NCBI GenBank assembly: GCA_041917295.1
Contig: JAYRXX010000025.1
Location: 51,275-115,274, forward strand
Source of the DNA: Elusimicrobiota bacterium
GTDB taxonomy: Bacteria; Elusimicrobiota; Elusimicrobia; FEN-1173
Direction: 5' to 3'
Length of the DNA: 64,000 bases
Each line of letters starts with the position of its first letter. Positions within the stretch are counted from its first letter, which is position 1. The notes beneath the pieces were generated by a model, which worked only from the letters and a program-made list of their open reading frames with translations, was not told where the DNA came from and did not search any database. Shown here piece after piece: positions 5,137-13,302 of the stretch. Position numbers and translations under genes: made by a program.

Positions 5137-5253
5137 AAAGATCGTCTTGAGCGGTTCGTTTGGAGGGTGTGTGTGGGGGGGGGGGGGCCGAGTTTACAGG
5201 ATTGTTACAATTTTTTCTCTGTTTCTTTCGAACGGAATCTCTATAATCTAGGT

Positions 5254-8200
5254 ATGGAAGACAGTGCGCCTATCTTGAGGGGCTCGGCTCCCCTGGGGGG
5301 GCTCCTCGGAAGAGGGGTTCGGCTGTTGTTGGCTGCCCTCCTTTTTTCGGGAGACATGGGGGCGTGGGCCGCCCGAGACCTCTGGACAGAACGTCGAAAA
5401 GCGGCTTTTTCCGTTCGTGGCGGGTTGCGTTCCCCCGCCGCGGACCGGTTGGCGGCCTCGTTTCCGTCCGTCGATCCGGGGTTTGTCCCGGCGGAGGCGT
5501 CGGGCATGCCCGCCTGGTTGGCGAACACGGTGGGGCTTTATGCCGATGTGGGAACCTATGTTCCTCCCCCGCCGGGCCAACGGCGCGTGTTGATTCATGT
5601 TCAGGACCTTCACGCGGTGGAGGAGGCCCAACGCAACATCGCCTCTCTCCTGGACCAACTGGCGGGATCGGTCGGAGGAACCGACGGTCTGTACGTGGGG
5701 TTGGAAGGAGCGGCCGGACCATTTCGGACCGACGATTTTCGCGCGTTGGCGGCGCCGTCGGTGATCCGGCGGGTTTCGGACCGGTTTTTGCGGGCCGGAC
5801 TGATTTCGGGGCCCGAATTTTTTAGTTTGACCACCGAACGCCCGTTTCGTCTGTGGGGCACGGAAGATCCCGCCGCCTACGAAGCCAACGTCCGCGCGTT
5901 GACCCAAACCTTCGCCACCCAACCCCAAGACGACGCCCGCTTGGCCCACGCCCGCCGTCGGATGGACAAGTTAAAAAAGGCCCTCTACCCCCCCGCCCTG
6001 CTTGCCCTGGACGAGGCCCAAACCGCCTACGAATCCGGCCAACTCCCGTTGACGGGGTACGTCCAAAAGATTTCTGAAAATGTTTCGGACCGGGAGATGG
6101 GCCCTTCCCTGGTCCGGTATCGGGAAGCGTTGCGGTTGGAATCGGACCTCTCTCTCAAAAGCGTCGAGGCGGACCAACAACGGCTTCTGGAACATCTTGC
6201 GCCTCTCTTGACCGATCTTGAACGCCGCCGTTTAACCGAGGCCGGGTTGGCTTGCCGGTTGGGCCGGGCACGGCACGGTTCCTTTTTGACCGTCCTAAAA
6301 GAAATATGTCGACAACGCCGGGTCGACCTGGCCGGGTATCCCCACTTTTTGGCTCACAACGCCTATGTTGAAAAGGTGCAAGGATTGAGGGGGGAAGAGT
6401 TGATGGGGGATGTGGAACGTTTGGCTGATCGTCAAATGCAAGTTTTGGCGGGGGACGCCGCCGTTGTTAAAGCCATCGAGCTGGATCGTGACCTAAAACG
6501 GATCGAAAAACTGAACCGCTTTTCGATGGTCCCGGACGAATTTGGGAGGTGGACCCAACGTCGGTCAGAGGTGGCCCGATGGTCTCAACGGGGGGCCGAT
6601 TTGGCCCGGTATGCGGAAAGGTCTGTCCGGGTTCCCGGTTCTGAAGGTGTTCAACGGGCCAAGGGGAAGGAACCCAAGGGGGCCGACCCTTGGCCGGACC
6701 TCTTGGACGTGGCCGACCGGCACGCCGGTTTTCACCGGTGGGCCGAAACGCGCAATCGTTCGCTGGTTAAAAACCTGTTGGCCCGTTGGACCGACGACCG
6801 TCCGGCGGTGTTGGTGGCGGGCGGGTTCCAAGCAGAGGGTCTTCGCGCCGTCGCCCGGTCCGAAGGGGTGGGTTACATCTCCCTTGTCCCACGGGTGATC
6901 CACACCAAACAGTTTCCGCCGCCCCTGGAATCCTTTCGATCTAAAGGAAAAACAATCAAGTGGCGGTTGCCCGGCCCTTCCTCTCTCCAAAACCGCCTTC
7001 GAACCGCGGGTTCGGAGATTGGTTCACGAGAGGTTGTTTCAGTGGATAATGGGGAAGTTCCCTTTCCCACCGCGTTTATTGCCACGGTGTATGCCACGCT
7101 GGTCATGGATCCGGAATATCAAACTCCCTTGTCCCCGGGGGCCGTTGAGAAATTGCGGGAGGTGGCACTTACCCGGTTTGGGGTCGACTTGGAGCAAGTC
7201 GGTTCGGCCAACGAGAAAGGGGGCTTGGTGTTGACGGTCCGATTTCCGTCGGTACCCGAAGTCCCCGCCTACACCGTGACGATAAGTCGGGGTGGGCCCA
7301 ACGGGGAGGCCGGCGATTTCTGGGTGGGGATTGAATCGGTTTCTTCCTGGCGGCAAGCGGTCGAATTTATTCGCCAGGCGGACAATTTGATTGCATCCCT
7401 GGGCCCCGCGATTCGGTTGTGGGCCACTCGGGTTTTGCCCCACGCGATCGATCAAACGGGTTTGGCGTTTCGAAAAACGGCCGTATTTCTTATTCCGACG
7501 GTTCGTTCAGCCGGTGGATCGGGCCTCTTGAATTATTTCGGGGGACTGAAGGATCGGTGGACCCAATCGATCCTCTTGGCCCGGGAACGGGAAGACGTGC
7601 TCAAGGCGCTCGCCCAACCGCTTGACGATCGCAACGCCCGGTTGGCCGCGTTGGCCGCAAACCACACCAGGGTCATGCCCTCGGCATGGGTTCAATCTTT
7701 ATCCGAAGCGATCAATGGCCACAAGATCGGGACTCTAGAGATTGGGGTGGACAAAAAGAGCCTTCTGGTTTCCTTGGGTCAGGGTCAGTCCACCACCCGA
7801 TTGCGGTTGCATGTGACGTCGGCCAGGGCCCTCTACGAGCGACCCGCCGACTATTCTCCATACCAACTCGCCCGACGTTCAGACGGGACCATCGACGTGT
7901 ATTTGGCGGAACCGGTGGTCTCCAGCCCGGAACGGTTGTTGCCCTTGGTGATCGGTCGTTTGTTGCGTGAAATCAACGGCCAACCGTCGGGGAACCACCG
8001 CCTGGAAGAACTTCAGATTTTGTTGGGGATGTGGGAATCGTTGGCCCAGTACTCCATCAACAGCTGGGCCAGTTATGTTTTGGGAATGAAATTGGAACCG
8101 GCAATCGGGGTTCCTTCTGCGGTTCAACGCCAGGCCTGGCAACCCGGCGCTGTCCTTGATTTTGTTAACAATACGGAAGAGCAACTGGGTGGGGCCAACA

Positions 8201-9255
8201 CCGGCTTGTTTGTTTTGACCGGGGCTTCCCCAAATTCGGAAGCGGATTCTTTGGCTTCAACGGTAACCATGGACGCAGTGGTCAACGTACTTGCGGGTCT
8301 TGGTTGGGACACTGAGAGGGCCGGGGCCACGGCCAAGGGGTTGGTCGAAAATCGGCTGAATCAACGTATTCAGCTGATTGAACAGTTTCAAACCTTGGCG
8401 GATCAACGGGGTTTATTGACGCGCCTTTCCTGGCGGGTGAACCGTCAAGAATTGTCCGCCAGCGGAGCGAACCTGGTGATCGATTTGCTCAAGCACGTGG
8501 GTACGTCCCAAGGGCAAATCATGGCGCTGAACGGGACCCCTTACGAGACGGGACTCCAAACTCAAATGACGGACCAGTTTCCCTATCTGGCGCAAACCTT
8601 GCTGGGAATCATGAAAATGGCCGGGCAACCCCTGGACCGGGCGAGCGTGGAAAATCAGCGCGCTCGGTTGGCGGACATGTGGACTGTTTACGCGGAACAT
8701 TTTTCCATCGGATACGGCCAACTGTCTTCGGTTTACTCCCCTCCGGCGGCCTCCGCCACGGTGGCCCAAGCCGAGGGAGTCCTCGTCGGAGTGTTCCACC
8801 TGGCCCCCCTTGGCGATGAGAAAGCCCTCGACCGGGTTCTCGATGTGTTGTTGAGCCGTGACTTGAGCCGGTTTAAAGCAACGCTGTTGGTCCCGGAAAA
8901 TGGAGACGATTTGAAGGATTCTCTCGTCAAGGCGCTTGAAAATCGCTTGCGGGTACGGGAAATGACCGACTCTCAAACGGCGGGCGTCACAACATTTCTG
9001 GCCGGAGAAAATTTGTTGGTTCTCCCCGCGGGGGCTGAAAGGATTCAGTTGGATCTGGTGTTTCAGCAAATTACCCAACGCTGGGGAAACGTCACCCATG
9101 CGGACGTTTACACCGTCAACGCGGCTGTTTTTGATATGACCGTGGCGACCCTGCTCTCTTGGAATATCTACGAAAACGGCGTTCTGGTTTCCAATTCCGT
9201 CAAATCGGCTTTGGCGGAACAGCGGATCCGCGCTTTCATACAGCAACAAGCTTAA
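5254..9255 (+). CDS. Large (1334 aa) hypothetical secreted or membrane-anchored protein of unknown function
   Basis: Long uninterrupted ORF in a 62% GC genome with a hydrophobic N-terminal segment (VRLLLAALLFSG). The ATG at 5254 lies directly after a TATAAT hexamer, whereas the track ORF starts at 5167 inside a poly-G tract. No Walker, HExxH or other catalytic motif was recognised. Confidence 0.6.
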   Translation: MEDSAPILRGSAPLGGLLGRGVRLLLAALLFSGDMGAWAARDLWTERRKAAFSVRGGLRSPAADRLAASFPSVDPGFVPAEASGMPAWLANTVGLYADVGTYVPPPPGQRRVLIHVQDLHAVEEAQRNIASLLDQLAGSVGGTDGLYVGLEGAAGPFRTDDFRALAAPSVIRRVSDRFLRAGLISGPEFFSLTTERPFRLWGTEDPAAYEANVRALTQTFATQPQDDARLAHARRRMDKLKKALYPPALLALDEAQTAYESGQLPLTGYVQKISENVSDREMGPSLVRYREALRLESDLSLKSVEADQQRLLEHLAPLLTDLERRRLTEAGLACRLGRARHGSFLTVLKEICRQRRVDLAGYPHFLAHNAYVEKVQGLRGEELMGDVERLADRQMQVLAGDAAVVKAIELDRDLKRIEKLNRFSMVPDEFGRWTQRRSEVARWSQRGADLARYAERSVRVPGSEGVQRAKGKEPKGADPWPDLLDVADRHAGFHRWAETRNRSLVKNLLARWTDDRPAVLVAGGFQAEGLRAVARSEGVGYISLVPRVIHTKQFPPPLESFRSKGKTIKWRLPGPSSLQNRLRTAGSEIGSREVVSVDNGEVPFPTAFIATVYATLVMDPEYQTPLSPGAVEKLREVALTRFGVDLEQVGSANEKGGLVLTVRFPSVPEVPAYTVTISRGGPNGEAGDFWVGIESVSSWRQAVEFIRQADNLIASLGPAIRLWATRVLPHAIDQTGLAFRKTAVFLIPTVRSAGGSGLLNYFGGLKDRWTQSILLAREREDVLKALAQPLDDRNARLAALAANHTRVMPSAWVQSLSEAINGHKIGTLEIGVDKKSLLVSLGQGQSTTRLRLHVTSARALYERPADYSPYQLARRSDGTIDVYLAEPVVSSPERLLPLVIGRLLREINGQPSGNHRLEELQILLGMWESLAQYSINSWASYVLGMKLEPAIGVPSAVQRQAWQPGAVLDFVNNTEEQLGGANTGLFVLTGASPNSEADSLASTVTMDAVVNVLAGLGWDTERAGATAKGLVENRLNQRIQLIEQFQTLADQRGLLTRLSWRVNRQELSASGANLVIDLLKHVGTSQGQIMALNGTPYETGLQTQMTDQFPYLAQTLLGIMKMAGQPLDRASVENQRARLADMWTVYAEHFSIGYGQLSSVYSPPAASATVAQAEGVLVGVFHLAPLGDEKALDRVLDVLLSRDLSRFKATLLVPENGDDLKDSLVKALENRLRVREMTDSQTAGVTTFLAGENLLVLPAGAERIQLDLVFQQITQRWGNVTHADVYTVNAAVFDMTVATLLSWNIYENGVLVSNSVKSALAEQRIRAFIQQQA

Positions 9256-11120: not shown

Positions 11121-11411
11121 CTACGCGCTTTCTTGCATGTAGTCAACAACAATGCCGATGATCTTTCGAACCGCTTCGTTGCAGGATTTGAATTCGATTC
11201 GGTCCAAAACGGCGGATCCGTGTTTTCGAAGAAGGTCACTGATGAGGGCGTGAATAAAGGATTGGGTGGCCGCCTCCACGCCCGCGAAGTCCAACACGAC
11301 GGTGTCCCCGGATTCCAGGGCGGGAAGAATTTCACCCAGACGCAGGGCTCTGGCCGCGTCCTTGTTTTCGGCGAAACTTCCCGCGTGGGCGAGCAGGCGG
11401 ATCTGTTTCAT
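11121..11411 (-). CDS. STAS-like small protein (anti-sigma-antagonist-like or DUF4325-like fold)
   Basis: 96 aa with a VVLDFAGVEAATQSFIHALI core typical of STAS or anti-anti-sigma-like domains. Its start overlaps the stop of the upstream HATPase gene (ATGA at 11408-11411). Confidence 0.55.
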   Translation of the reverse strand: MKQIRLLAHAGSFAENKDAARALRLGEILPALESGDTVVLDFAGVEAATQSFIHALISDLLRKHGSAVLDRIEFKSCNEAVRKIIGIVVDYMQESA

Positions 11412-12370
11412 GTGAACCGGGGTTGTTTAAACCGTTCCCGTCTTCGTTCGCGTATGGCGGATGAGTATGTGTCTCGTATCGCGTCCAGAAGTTTGGAGAA
11501 CGCCTCGGTTTGACCAAGCGATATATCGACCCCGACGACGGTCCCCGGCCAATAGGGCATGTCGGATTCGGTGGAATGCCGGTCTTTGAACGGATCGGCG
11601 CGAAGCGAGGGGTTGCGGCCGGTCCTTTTTTTTAAAAGTTTGTAAAACCCATTTCCGCTGTAGATCACGAAAAAATCCCGATTCACGCTCGCGATGGATT
11701 TGACGAAAAACAATCCCGCGCCGGCATTTTGATCGGTGCCTCCTTCCCGCGCGGTGGCGCCCGTAATTCCCGGGGTTAAGGCCAAGCGAATGGCCTCCAA
11801 ATCCGATGGGGCCCTGTGGGAGCGGTTGATGGTGGTTTTGATGCCAACGCCCGTGTCGGCAATCCCGATGCGAAGGGTGTGGCTTTTCTTGTAGTACTGG
11901 GCGCAGAGAAACGCGCCGTGGGGAGATTCGGCATGCTCGATCACGTTTCGCACAAGTTCGCTGACAATGTATCCCAGGGTTTTCGAGGGATCGGGGTCGA
12001 GGTGCAGCAACGGGATCATCTCTGTAATGAAAGCGCTCAGCTCATTGGAAGTCCGAATTTGCGTCAGGGGGATGAACCGCCCCGCTGGTTCATGTTCCTG
12101 CAAGACGATGTCCGAGTCGATCCCAAGAGTTCGCATGAGGCCCATGCGCACAAAATAGCCTGATGACGCCGCCTCAAATTTCCCACAAAAGATATTTTCG
12201 GGTTTAACGCGTTGTCCAAGGGCGGCCAACATGGATAGAACCATCGGATGAACGGACATCCATCGGTCGTTTGCCGTGATTTCCAGGATGTCTGGTTGTG
12301 AAGGATCAAAACCGCGTAAAAAGGGATCAATGTTCCCAAGGAATGCGCTGTTTGGGATGTGTATTTTCAT
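11408..12370 (-). CDS. Histidine-kinase-like ATPase (HATPase_c, GHKL) protein with an unrecognised ~145-aa N-terminal domain
   Basis: N-box ELVRNVIEHAE, G1 box IGIADTGVGI and G2-like GATAREGG...GAGLFF in the central region, like RsbW/SpoIIAB-type Ser kinases but with extra N- and C-terminal regions. GC content is visibly lower than in the neighbouring genes. Confidence 0.65.
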   Translation of the reverse strand: MKIHIPNSAFLGNIDPFLRGFDPSQPDILEITANDRWMSVHPMVLSMLAALGQRVKPENIFCGKFEAASSGYFVRMGLMRTLGIDSDIVLQEHEPAGRFIPLTQIRTSNELSAFITEMIPLLHLDPDPSKTLGYIVSELVRNVIEHAESPHGAFLCAQYYKKSHTLRIGIADTGVGIKTTINRSHRAPSDLEAIRLALTPGITGATAREGGTDQNAGAGLFFVKSIASVNRDFFVIYSGNGFYKLLKKRTGRNPSLRADPFKDRHSTESDMPYWPGTVVGVDISLGQTEAFSKLLDAIRDTYSSAIRERRRERFKQPRFT

Positions 12371-12437
12371 TATAACGAATTATACCGGGATTCCTGGGTA
12401 TTGTCAATACACCTAAATTCCCGGTATTTATTTGTTA

Positions 12438-12460
12438 ATTATCGGTCTTGGCCGAGACCG
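12438..12460 (-). terminator. Hairpin downstream of nfu (minus strand)
   Basis: CGGTCT-TGGCCGA-GACCG inverted repeat just 3' of the nfu stop in an AT-rich spacer. It has no clear U-tract, so it is only a putative terminator. Confidence 0.3.
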
Positions 12461-12485
12461 GTAAAATGGATGGATTCTCCCCGCG

Positions 12486-13025
12486 TTAAACCGTAACCAC
12501 CCGGATGTTGGGATCCAGCATCCGCTGAAGCAGGTTTTGGATGGCGAACAAGGTCCCCGCGGACGCGCTGGGACAACTGCCGCAGGCGCCTTGGTAATGA
12601 ACCGTTAACAGCCCGTCTTGATAATCCAATATTTCCAGTCCGCCGCCGTCGCCGGCCAAGGCGGGGCGAATGTTTTCATCAATGATTTGTTCGATGCGGG
12701 CGCGGATGTCGTCATTGGAGGCGGCGCCGGTCGAGGCGGGGGCGGAGGGTTTGACCGCTTCGCCGCGCGTTTCGATGGCGGATTTAAGCCGCGGTTCGAG
12801 TTGGTCCCAATCGGCCTCGGGCCGTTTGGTGACCGTCACGAACCGGTCGAGGATGAACACCGAGGCCACGGGGCCCGCGGCGAACAGGGCTTCGCTCAGA
12901 GCGTGGGTTTTGGCGTCGGCGGCGTTTTCAAAAGACAGGGCCCCCCTCTCCACCAACCGATTGTCCGTAATAAATTTAAGCGCATCCGGGTTGGGCGTTC
13001 CTTGAACCTCGACAACTTTGACCAT
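12486..13025 (-). CDS. NFU1/NfuA-type Fe-S cluster assembly protein with Nfu_N and NifU C-terminal domains
   Basis: C-terminal CGSCPSASAGTL (CxxC NifU motif) and an N-terminal Nfu_N-like domain (MVKVVEVQGTPNPDALKF). Confidence 0.8.
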   Translation of the reverse strand: MVKVVEVQGTPNPDALKFITDNRLVERGALSFENAADAKTHALSEALFAAGPVASVFILDRFVTVTKRPEADWDQLEPRLKSAIETRGEAVKPSAPASTGAASNDDIRARIEQIIDENIRPALAGDGGGLEILDYQDGLLTVHYQGACGSCPSASAGTLFAIQNLLQRMLDPNIRVVTV

Positions 13026-13302
13026 GGGGGGCCTCCTTTCGACGAAGATACATTATACCAAGCGCGGGAGGGGGTGTCCACGGTGCGCGTTTGGACGGAC
13101 CCGGAAAAAATGGCCTTGACAGAATGGCGGGGGCGGGTATAATAACGCGCGCCAGAACTTGGATGGGGCCGAGGATCGGTCCCGATGGCCAGAAAACGAT
13201 TGATTCGAAAAATCATCCACACACGACCGTTCGGCATGATACCCTGGGGTCCCGTCGGGAATCCAGGAATAATGCCCGGCCGGAACCTCTAAGGAGTCCT
13301 CC

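Follow-up and report, generated by a model that had tools for sequence, protein, structure and literature searches.

The K-S gene pair and its proteins

Two overlapping minus-strand genes, here called K and S, lie between ndk and nfu in the window (the whole 64-kb stretch of Elusimicrobiota DNA that was analysed). K (11408..12370, minus strand, stop codon included) encodes a STAS-like plus GHKL Ser/Thr-kinase-like protein of 320 aa, and S (11121..11411, minus strand) a 96-aa DUF4325 protein, that is, a STAS protein of the VapS type. The stop codon of K and the start codon of S share a 4-nt ATGA overlap, which implies translational coupling within a two-gene operon. The gene upstream of K, nfu, is read from the same strand, while ndk, on the plus strand, converges with S; the original prediction of a 320-aa GHKL ATPase and a 96-aa STAS-like protein between these two genes therefore described the open reading frames and their position exactly. 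The order nfu-K-S-ndk is retained in sister strains, and S stands directly behind K in 87 of 88 loci. A CGGTCT/AGACCG stem-loop noted upstream of the pair is present (12443..12460, minus strand) and is kept in sister strains, but its predicted stability does not exceed that of shuffled sequence (z -0.3); as this inverted repeat starts about 25 nt past the nfu stop codon, it is probably part of nfu rather than of the K-S module. An Rfam scan of the K-S region gave no match.

The lower GC content claimed for the pair proved real but modest in a windowed comparison. The pair stands at 0.545, ndk and nfu at 0.60-0.61, and the window outside the pair at 0.579; among 1250-nt segments of the stretch the pair falls at the 6th percentile. 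The upstream spacer (12371-12485), held to be the most AT-rich part of the window, has a GC content of 0.426; the lowest-GC 115-nt stretch in the 64 kb is 12326-12440 (0.357), which overlaps the spacer and also covers the first codons of K.

An AF2 model of K reached a pLDDT of 90 once relatives of 27-48% identity had joined the alignment, compared with 44 for 32 close homologues alone. In this model an N-terminal α/β domain with STAS-like strand/helix order (residues 1-105; 12056..12370, minus strand) precedes a GHKL (Bergerat-fold) kinase domain (residues 108-285; 11516..12049, minus strand), and a C-terminal helix with the basic tail RERRRERFKQPRF completes the protein (residues 288-320; 11411..11509, minus strand). 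These boundaries depart from those first proposed, since the N-terminal domain spans about 105 rather than about 145 aa and, because the kinase fold reaches residue ~285, the supposed C-terminal region of about 85 aa reduces to a helix (288-314) and the basic tail. The tail is conserved both in the tight K-S family and in a subfamily of 43% identity, and is a candidate operator-binding or partner-binding element.

Sequence databases identified K sparingly: Pfam HATPase_c_2 matched residues 110-227 under its gathering score (E 2e-5), the Pfam scan gave no match in the N-terminal domain, the K profile found no useful match among PDB sequences, and an NCBIfam scan stayed at noise level, with spIIAB as a weak match (E 0.02). 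The predicted kinase boxes are nonetheless intact (N box E138/N142, G1 D172xGxG176, G2 G217xG219), and N142, D172/G174/G176 and G217/G219 are invariant across an alignment at 27-78% identity. Among known structures the K model matches SpoIIAB best, with RsbW and SiaB next, which agrees with the partner-switching logic originally ascribed to the pair. A further Foldseek match, 6m36_C, was left out of the fold assignment because the chain is ambiguous between RsbV and RsbW. Sequence and model together show an anti-sigma-type Ser/Thr kinase fold with intact catalytic boxes behind a STAS-like domain. Within the tight family the N-terminal domain holds invariant F10, W37, H41-P42, R75-M-G-L and G97-R-F-I-P. 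Its comparison with the S/DUF4325 alignment by hhalign was not significant (Prob 0.8%), so that 'STAS-like' refers here to strand/helix order and to alignment with the STAS domains of VapK and CapK only.

S was recognised more readily, as DUF4325 (E 4e-15, above the gathering score), in keeping with the suggestion of a DUF4325/STAS protein; STAS_2 scored under its cut-off (E 0.012), and the sole PDB sequence match was VapS (9z7o_A). Its length is 94-107 aa across the family, excepting one copy cut by a contig end. A TQS motif (T49-Q50-S51; codons at 11259..11267, minus strand) is nearly invariant among 81 sequences, with T49 in 79 and Q50 and S51 in all, and occupies the phospho-acceptor place of SpoIIAA (S58), CapS (S54) and VapS (S48). 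VapS S48 aligns with Q50, one residue from both T49 and S51, whereas S51 appears to lie in the SpoIIAA register; by analogy, S51 or T49 is the presumed phospho-acceptor. No DNA-binding domain was recognisable in K or S.

A paired operator over the K promoter

The near-palindromes reported from the spacer are real and far from chance; both belong to a motif that precedes K in nearly every related locus. The distal copy, O1 (TACCGGGAATTTAGGTG; 12410..12426, minus strand), and the proximal copy, O2 (ACCCAGGAATCCCGGTA; 12383..12399, minus strand), are versions of a family-wide 17-bp palindrome with the consensus TACCGGGAWTCCCGGTA, which stands 5' of K in 66 of 67 bacterial and all 15 archaeal loci. 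Over 1.24 Mb of loci, 141 of 145 palindrome matches fall within 100 nt upstream of K, and just two lie beyond the pair on its downstream side (+2.7 kb and +5.3 kb). O1 and O2 start 27 nt apart in the window, a spacing of 27-28 nt being found in 53 of 55 bacterial loci. A promoter scan placed a -35 hexamer TTGACA (12402..12407, minus strand) and a -10 hexamer TATAAT (12379..12384, minus strand) in the window, a sigma-70 promoter that matches the consensus at 12 of 12 positions with a 17-nt spacer. Here, as in bacterial loci at large, the operator copies bracket the -35 and overlap the -10 hexamer, which O2 covers in part; in 49 of 55 bacterial loci the interval between the copies contains TTGACA with at most one mismatch.

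The left half-site of O1 and the right half-site of O2 are intact, and a repeat search in the window returned exactly these two outer half-sites as a paired repeat. As each copy has one decayed half-site (O2 reads TACCAGGAATCCCGGTA in sister strains), control of the pair may be weaker in this genome. The -10 hexamer ends 8 nt before the ATG of K, and 41 of 55 loci have a comparable distance of 6-8 nt. A Shine-Dalgarno-like motif precedes K in just 4 of 67 loci and is lacking in the window, so that the K-S mRNA is predicted to be leaderless or nearly so, and appears leaderless from its promoter layout. This is of practical consequence: among the relatives checked, gene callers start K at M47 in sister strains, yielding 274 aa rather than 320 aa, a truncation that likely stems from an mRNA without leader or ribosome-binding site.

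In archaea the same operator accompanies the genes, and in all 15 loci its copies flank a TATA box located at -30; the diverged subfamily of 43% identity retains the layout with a correspondingly different inverted repeat. Operator and both proteins are fixed while the core promoter is swapped between sigma-70 and TATA types, an argument for a module that recognises its own site on the DNA. We also considered the palindromes as mobile-element ends or attC-like sites, and rejected this because they are confined to the region upstream of K at fixed distances from the -35/-10 hexamers or the TATA box. Among the 120 exact-motif matches listed from metagenomes, 58 were directly upstream of K; three inspected matches away from K comprised two collagen-like GNPGNPG coding repeats and one orphan promoter. 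Beyond the K promoter the paired operator was found at that orphan promoter and on three viral contigs, the other matches being single copies.

Relatives among kinase-STAS systems

DNA-damage-sensing kinase-substrate pairs of two kinds, CapK/CapS and VapK/VapS, were described in 2026 (Chambers et al., EMBO J 2026, PMC13373217; PDB 9Z7O). In that report, VapKSC joins a VapK kinase, a VapS STAS antitoxin and a VapC PIN toxin in a toxin-antitoxin-like anti-phage system whose toxin is VapC and not the kinase; CapK (HTH-STAS-GHKL) and CapS (STAS plus a wHTH DNA-binding repressor) control adjacent immune operons, and CapK is activated by ssDNA bound between its STAS and GHKL domains, with W68, K237 and K239 involved. 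The K family aligned with VapK over 239 columns (hhalign Prob 98.5%, E 2.7e-15; K 23-287 with VapK 39-292), and under permissive settings (-mact 0.05) from K 1-299 to VapK 11-302; against CapK (Prob 98.0%, E 2.3e-13) both STAS and GHKL domains aligned. The N-terminal domain of K shares a YLxR(M/L)G(L/F)F motif with the STAS domains of VapK and CapK, and the K161-K162 turn aligns with CapK K237/K239, predicted ssDNA contacts. For the aromatic residue that stacks on ssDNA, K offers no clean equivalent: VapK F54 falls on S39 of K, two residues from the invariant W37, and the pairing of CapK W68 with the invariant F10 is confined to a part of the alignment with low confidence. S matched VapS by BLASTP (E 2e-6), VapS itself being DUF4325 (E 2.7e-17), and gave no BLASTP alignment with CapS. 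The N-terminal domain, formerly taken for a novel sensor, aligns with the STAS domain of described ssDNA-sensing kinases, an outcome that the original prediction had itself named as counting against it, and the pair, once held to be of an unnamed kind, has its kin in VapK and CapK over both N-terminal and kinase domains. Judged by these comparisons, K-S is a minimal, effector-less relative of the CapK/CapS and VapK/VapS pairs.

With VapKSC, K-S has in common the STAS-GHKL build of a kinase lacking an HTH, the order of K before S, and a conserved Ser/Thr at the start of helix 2 in S and VapS. It differs in having no VapC or other third gene, the next gene in the window being the convergent ndk, and in an S protein that stops at residue 96, where the STAS core of VapS ends (offset +2), without the C-terminal helix by which VapS blocks VapC (residues 94-116). 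VapK and CapK end after the last kinase strand, whereas K continues into its C-terminal helix and basic tail. The palindromic operator, extreme conservation and archaeal members of the K-S family likewise have no counterpart in the available part of PMC13373217. As regards CapK/CapS, the likeness lies in the matched YLxRxGxF motif and KxK turn, in a logic whereby a kinase phosphorylates a STAS protein (for K by analogy), and in autoregulation through promoter-overlapping palindromes, which for K-S is predicted from sequence. The differences are that K begins at its STAS-like domain, with no counterpart to CapK 1-58 (the HTH), that S is a bare 96-aa DUF4325 protein without the wHTH of CapS, that the K-S operator is TACCGGGAWTCCCGGTA upstream of K, and that no immune operon follows the pair.

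The last of these differences bears on whether K-S might, in the manner of CapKS, repress an operon downstream of S and induce it upon DNA damage. Homology of K to CapK, and a next gene on the same strand in 42 of 75 loci, at times overlapping, would suit such a local regulator. However, 33 of the 75 loci have a convergent gene after S, as does the window, S lacks the wHTH that serves CapS, and only the two aforementioned motif matches of 145 (+2.7 kb and +5.3 kb) lie downstream. Moreover, the downstream products scanned (Xth-like, AI-2E transporter, radical-SAM, ABC, HisRS, DUF6036, RuvA and EndoIII) are unrelated housekeeping proteins. We consider local regulation very improbable, and largely refuted by gene order. 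At one of the 42 same-strand loci (L023), an ORF 463 nt after S resembles a PIN-domain protein by eye.

In neighbour clustering no family exceeded 7 of about 82 loci. In the loci examined the pair lies outside defence islands, among unrelated housekeeping genes. As the original prediction had it, no sigma factor lies nearby: neither a sigma factor nor a PP2C phosphatase was present in the sister contig or in six other annotated loci. This weighs upon a classical anti-sigma/anti-anti-sigma pair of the RsbW/RsbV or SpoIIAB/SpoIIAA type, with its sigma factor encoded elsewhere, which would account for the anti-sigma-type GHKL Ser kinase fold of K, for SpoIIAB as best structural match and weak NCBIfam match (E 0.02), and for the label 'anti-sigma regulatory factor' given to homologues in source databases. 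Such a pair is hardly credible here, and we take it as refuted, given annotated neighbourhoods without sigma factor, phosphatase or any recurring neighbour, a K protein twice the size of RsbW with added N- and C-terminal parts, including a STAS-like domain shared with VapK and CapK, and an S protein in DUF4325, outside STAS and STAS_2. Furthermore, the K-S family occurs in archaea behind archaeal promoters, and archaea are not known to have sigma factors.

The suspected likeness to the cores of conflict systems was supported by models that K and S match in order. The PADLOC DrmA model PDLC02567 (DISARM-like helicase), 1750 positions long, is matched by K at 75-249 and S at 325-390 and nowhere outside 75-390, and consecutive parts of PHROG 5816 (phrog_5816) are matched by K, then S. 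The N-terminus of the DrmA model is consistent with a K-S fusion, and the ordered matches in both models suggest that a kinase plus STAS unit appears as a head domain in conflict proteins; in the locus, by contrast, K and S are separate, with no helicase or other effector attached. Membership of DISARM was excluded, as no helicase is present in the locus and the DrmA match is limited to 75-390. Since the only PADLOC match is this fused head, the K-S pair is not a PADLOC v2 system.

Conservation, proposed mechanism and significance

Of about 186,000 species genomes, 511 carried relatives of K-S. The best 80 loci come from a wide range of bacterial phyla and from several groups of archaea; their K proteins are 63-77% identical to that of the window, with a pairwise minimum of 56% across domains. 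Hosts include CPR bacteria, DPANN and methanogen-related archaea, and CP064976.1, OY969767.1 and JADKHR010000001.1 are examples of complete genomes with the pair; the family is the most conserved and most widespread form of the kinase-STAS core found in the searches run. dN/dS is 0.045-0.09 with saturated synonymous sites. The GC content of the pair follows that of the host (r 0.89), as does its GC3, which varies between 0.17 and 0.86. Recent transfer as the main cause of the high identity was therefore rejected. In a neighbour-joining tree all archaeal copies fall together and those of different bacterial phyla are interleaved, a pattern implying transfer; the window's copy, however, groups with other Elusimicrobia copies, and together with the conserved nfu-K-S-ndk order and host-tracking GC this leaves little to support the horizontal acquisition proposed for it. 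The tight family was absent from plasmid, phage and IMG/VR collections, which held relatives of 22-43% identity only. These distant homologues, on plasmids and temperate phages, add to the resemblance to conflict systems; those on small plasmids adjoin other toxin-antitoxin genes, and some lie near prophage integrases.

Such associations invite the view of K-S as a two-gene toxin-antitoxin or abortive-infection module, in which K would be a toxin that phosphorylates a universal component, S a pseudo-substrate antitoxin and co-repressor, and addiction and transfer the means of spread. The pair is a compact, self-contained unit of coupled genes whose operators overlap their promoter, a layout that would suit a type II toxin-antitoxin module; its genomic sites vary without a recurring partner gene, the tree implies transfer, distant relatives keep the company described above, and the sister system VapKSC is toxin-antitoxin-like and anti-phage (PMC13373217). 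Yet the toxin of VapKSC is VapC, not the kinase, and low dN/dS, at least 63% identity, saturated synonymous sites and host-adapted GC suggest a useful gene long settled in its hosts, and not a selfish element with rapid turnover. We regard this account as unlikely; it is a sub-hypothesis on output, and as such compatible with the explanation preferred below.

A further alternative is a partner switch acting in trans, whereby unphosphorylated S, or K, would control a host protein encoded elsewhere, as in SiaB/SiaC or RsbW/RsbV, making the pair a housekeeping regulator of stress or DNA damage and not a conflict system. Conservation of nearly every residue of K and S suggests several simultaneous interaction surfaces, the pair is kept in reduced genomes, and three of ten scanned downstream genes belong to DNA repair (Xth-like, RuvA, EndoIII). 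On the other hand, no protein suggests itself as a target and a regulon cannot be defined. Apart from the K promoter, the paired operator occurred just at one orphan promoter and on three viral contigs, and any target would need to be common to bacteria and archaea. This proposal strikes us as decidedly doubtful.

We favour, as the probable explanation, that K-S is a stand-alone, self-repressed member of the superfamily of CapK/VapK kinases and their CapS/VapS STAS substrates. Slow evolution and presence in tiny CPR and DPANN genomes are untypical of defence genes, and count against it. The mechanism of the CapK/CapS and VapK/VapS pairs is taken from PMC13373217, and kinase activity, phospho-site and ssDNA trigger are carried over to K-S by analogy. 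At rest, the module's own protein would occupy the operators and keep the K-S promoter shut. As S lacks a DNA-binding domain, and the basic helix of K is the sole family-specific addition, our best guess is that dimeric K, or K in complex with S, acts as the repressor. A signal, most likely ssDNA from damage or infection, would bind in the groove between the STAS-like and kinase domains of K, where the lysine pair is conserved, and K would then phosphorylate S at S51 or T49, dissolving the repressor and releasing a burst of K and S. By this analogy K-S is probably a phospho-switch triggered by ssDNA or DNA damage. As no output gene stands beside the pair, output would be in trans or within the kinase itself.

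CapK/CapS and VapK/VapS are wired to an adjacent immune operon or toxin, whereas the K-S core has neither a visible effector nor a recognisable DNA-binding domain, and raises the questions of what role a kinase-STAS pair has with nothing attached, and why it is so tightly constrained. A more speculative reading, to which we give limited credence, is that K-S constitutes a self-sufficient cross-domain alarm, in which K reads the operator through its C-terminal basic helix and senses ssDNA in the STAS-kinase groove, S is the sole dedicated substrate and co-repressor, and the module functions without change in bacteria and archaea because trigger (ssDNA) and target (a universal component or DNA) are common to the two domains. 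If true, this would account for K proteins that keep at least 63% identity to that of the window in both domains, and for an exchange limited to the core promoter. With operator and proteins held constant and the core promoter of sigma-70 or TATA-box type, the K-S family amounts to a natural experiment.

Homology of the kinase-STAS pair to CapK and VapK

Between nfu, upstream on the same strand, and ndk, convergent on the opposite strand, two minus-strand open reading frames encode K, a GHKL kinase-like protein of 320 aa (12370..11408), and S, a DUF4325/STAS-like protein of 96 aa (11411..11121), whose start codon overlaps the stop codon of K (ATGA). The original prediction of an HATPase plus STAS-like pair at this position was right overall, as was its claim of a GC content below that of the neighbours: windowed GC places the pair (0.545, vs 0.579 in the rest of the window and ~0.60-0.61 in nfu and ndk) at the 6th percentile among equally long windows of the 64 kb. 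The spacer before K had been called the most AT-rich region; the lowest-GC 115-nt stretch in the whole 64 kb (12326-12440) does cover it, but also takes in the start of K. The CGGTCT/AGACCG hairpin noted in the spacer exists as an inverted repeat after nfu, but its stem is no more stable than shuffled sequence; an Rfam search of the K-S region returned no match. In the adjoining nfu-rho gap, two sigma-70 promoter matches pointing apart (13116-13143, plus strand, 12/12; 13080-13052, minus strand, 11/12 with extended TG) are probably those of rho and nfu. Elsewhere in the window, a 1362-aa ORF (5167-9255) lies directly upstream of the isocitrate dehydrogenase gene, and its 1331-aa counterpart called in L096, a sister-strain contig, has no Pfam match.

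Residues 110-228 of K match Pfam HATPase_c_2 and HATPase_c, both under the gathering score, and S matches DUF4325 ("STAS-like", E 4e-15). AlphaFold2, given a diverse alignment, modelled K with confidence (pLDDT 90.1, pTM 0.90). The model comprises an α/β domain with the strand and helix order of a STAS fold (residues 1-105), a GHKL fold (108-285), and a long helix (288-314) with a basic tail at its end (RERRRERFKQPRF). S is an acidic STAS core alone, with invariant positions among 81 copies that include F13, E15, K17, D18, R24, F42, Q50-S51-F52, H54, S58, R62 and C77, and with T49 conserved in 79/81.

Almost nothing on DUF4325 was found in the literature; a full-text search combining STAS, GHKL and defense retrieved a study of kinase-STAS systems (Chambers et al., EMBO J 2026; PMC13373217). 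According to that paper, CapK (HTH-STAS-GHKL), triggered by single-stranded DNA bound between its STAS and kinase domains, phosphorylates Ser54 of the STAS-wHTH repressor CapS, and the adjacent immune operon is de-repressed. For VapK (STAS-GHKL), the authors propose phosphorylation of VapS, a STAS domain followed by a C-terminal helix, which would free the PIN toxin VapC; the phosphomimic VapS S48E frees VapC, direct VapK activity was not assayable, and VapK/VapS/VapC protects against phage Bas42. Using sequences from its supplementary files, the K-family profile matched both domains of VapK (Prob 98.5%, E 2.7e-15), and CapK (Prob 98.0%, E 2.3e-13), with the motif YLxR(M/L)G(L/F)F common to profile and CapK. 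VapS itself matches DUF4325 (E 2.7e-17) and was the sole match of S among PDB sequences; in the S-VapS alignment (E 2e-6) S48 falls on Q50 of S, flanked by invariant T49 and S51. CapS and S showed no similarity. The pair, originally taken for no recognised named system, is of a kind named since 2026, and the supposedly novel N-terminal domain of K is the counterpart of the STAS domain found in the sensors CapK and VapK. The sequence shows K to be an anti-sigma-type kinase, intact and with a STAS-like domain in front, and S a bare STAS partner with TQS invariant at the putative acceptor position.

The predicted ssDNA contacts K237 and K239 of CapK align with an invariant K161-K162 turn of K. 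VapK F54, the aromatic ssDNA-stacking residue, aligns with S39, two residues from invariant W37, and CapK W68 aligns with F10 only in a low-confidence stretch; the stacking aromatic is not cleanly matched in K. Both CapK and VapK stop where their last kinase strand ends, which makes the helix and basic tail at the C-terminus of K an addition. S lacks the wHTH of CapS and the VapC-blocking helix of VapS, and a third gene, such as the VapC toxin gene of VapKSC, is absent. The portions of PMC13373217 that were searched contain neither an effector-less two-gene form nor a K-type C-terminal addition, and neither a K-S operator with domain-specific promoters nor cross-domain spread under very strong constraint.

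Promoter and putative operators

A perfect sigma-70 promoter (TTGACA-17-TATAAT; 12407..12379, minus strand) precedes K, its -10 hexamer ending 8 nt before the ATG, and a Shine-Dalgarno sequence is absent; K and S, whose stop and start codons overlap, form a two-gene operon that is apparently leaderless. When the 160-nt stretches preceding K were aligned, the loci showed a 17-bp family palindrome, TACCGGGAWTCCCGGTA. The near-palindromes originally noticed in the spacer lie on either side of the -35 and extend over the -10: in the distal copy, O1 (12410-12426, minus strand), only the left half is intact, and in the proximal copy, O2 (12383-12399, minus strand), only the right, O2 being near consensus in the 97% identical sister strains. 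When 1.24 Mb of loci were scanned with the 13-nt core, allowing one mismatch, 141/145 matches fell within 100 nt upstream of K. At least one copy is present in 66/67 bacterial loci and two in 55/67; the two lie 27-28 nt apart in 53/55, with TTGACA between them in 49/55, TATAAT overlapping the proximal copy, and 6-8 nt from -10 to ATG in 41/55. SD-like motifs precede K in merely 4/67. All 15 archaeal loci carry a palindrome ending near -41 and TTTATAAA at -30 ± 2 (CTTATATA in one), and 9/15 also have, at -11 to -14, a half-site that fits TTCCCGGTA with no more than one mismatch. Since the palindromes are kept in both layouts, the predicted operators, which cover the promoter and are private to the module, move with the K-S genes, the core promoter being swapped for the type that the host domain uses. 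In L089-L091, a subfamily at 43% identity, the layout is the same and the inverted repeat is another (ATACCCGTAGATCGTAT / ATACGACCTACGGGTAT), a pattern to be anticipated if the predicted site is read by a protein of the module.

Among the metagenome matches listed for the exact 17-mer, 58/120 lay directly upstream of K and the remainder were nearly all single copies; three of the latter, when inspected, comprised two collagen-like coding repeats and one orphan full promoter (L195:462-506; two operators plus TTGACA, no K behind). A solo exact copy also lies 2.7 kb downstream of the K-S pair of an archaeal locus (L058:6945-6965). Both may be remnants of lost cassettes or additional regulated sites. 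Three IMG/VR contigs without K and S genes (L104:1988-2035, L120:1734-1781, L127:10953-11000) each bear two palindromes at 28-nt spacing with a T-run in place of the -35; in L120 and L127, for which ORFs were listed, these lie just past the stop codon of a gene. Tandem terminators are one possibility, another being operator decoys or sensors employed by phages whose hosts carry K-S.

In the sister strains (L095-L098), K has been called automatically from Met47 (274 aa), although both the first ATG and the full 320-aa frame are intact (window 12370 vs 12232). Such a mis-start is expected of an mRNA lacking leader and ribosome-binding site, which is its likely cause, and database entries for the K family may be shortened likewise.

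Distribution, constraint and neighbours

The protein database holds 3052 K homologues, the best 120 being 70-97% identical and nearly all 319-322 aa. Relatives are encoded in 511 genomes (one searched per species), the best 80 loci of which show 63-77% identity over the whole length and span Elusimicrobiota, Omnitrophota, Saganbacteria, Patescibacteria, Planctomycetota, Chlamydiota, Deltaproteobacteria, Bdellovibrionales, Spirochaetia, Nitrospira and one record labelled Gammaproteobacteria, as well as archaeal records labelled Methanosarcinales, Nano-, Woese-, Aenigm- and Micrarchaeota, and Thermoplasmatota. Between loci S is 45-78% identical; it follows K in 87/88, the remaining one being a contig end. 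A neighbour-joining tree places the archaeal copies in one cluster that also includes a lone unclassified-bacterium MAG; bacterial phyla are partly mixed, and the window's copy falls among Elusimicrobia. The order nfu-K-S-ndk is retained in the sister strains at 97% identity. For most pairs of loci dS is saturated, and dN/dS is 0.045-0.09 where measurable; pair GC tracks flank GC (r 0.89; GC3 0.17 to 0.86). Relative to L001, another Elusimicrobia locus, K and S are 78% and 71% identical, and Nfu 26% (window 12486-13025 vs L001:11333-11929); either the Nfu genes are paralogues, or the constraint on K-S far exceeds that on this housekeeping gene. By dS, dN/dS, GC and the L001 comparison, recent transfer is not the sole cause of the high K-S identity.

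Clustering of all ORFs within 6 kb either side of ~82 non-redundant loci revealed no neighbour family in more than 7, and in 33/75 S is followed, like the window's copy, by a convergent gene. Ten same-strand products downstream of S, scanned with Pfam, bore no relation to one another and were for the most part housekeeping proteins: an Xth-like nuclease, an AI-2E transporter, a radical-SAM enzyme, an ABC ATPase, HisRS, RuvA, EndoIII, one without a Pfam match, and DUF6036 nucleotidyltransferases in two of the ten. Three of these ten are DNA-repair genes (exonuclease III-like, RuvA and endonuclease III, in L001, L075 and L081), which fits a DNA-damage theme in a sample too small for enrichment. 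Annotated neighbourhoods contain no sigma factor or PP2C phosphatase. The original proposal of partner-switching or conflict logic lacking a sigma factor is sound. Further afield, K then S match, in order, the head of one PADLOC DrmA model, consistent with a K-S fusion at that head, and consecutively PHROG 5816. Relatives at 22-30% identity sit on plasmids and temperate phages; distant K-like and DUF4325/STAS pairs lie beside the integrase of Marinitoga phage MPV1 (L094:2770-4123) and next to the integrase or repressor region of a Francisella prophage (PMC7924643), positions typical of accessory or defence cargo.

Proposed mechanism and output

By analogy with the experimentally studied relatives, K would phosphorylate S, the trigger probably being ssDNA in the inter-domain groove of K. 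The anatomy of the module suggests that it encodes its own repressor; a DNA-binding domain is missing from S, so that the best candidate to read the operators is the basic helix peculiar to this K family, either by itself or in a K·S complex, and S phosphorylation would then open the K-S promoter. Gene order and the occurrence in archaea all but exclude that the pair controls adjacent genes or serves as a sigma-factor switch. Two live options are left for the output: the kinase K may itself be the effector, in a toxin-antitoxin-like manner, or the pair may act as a partner switch in trans.
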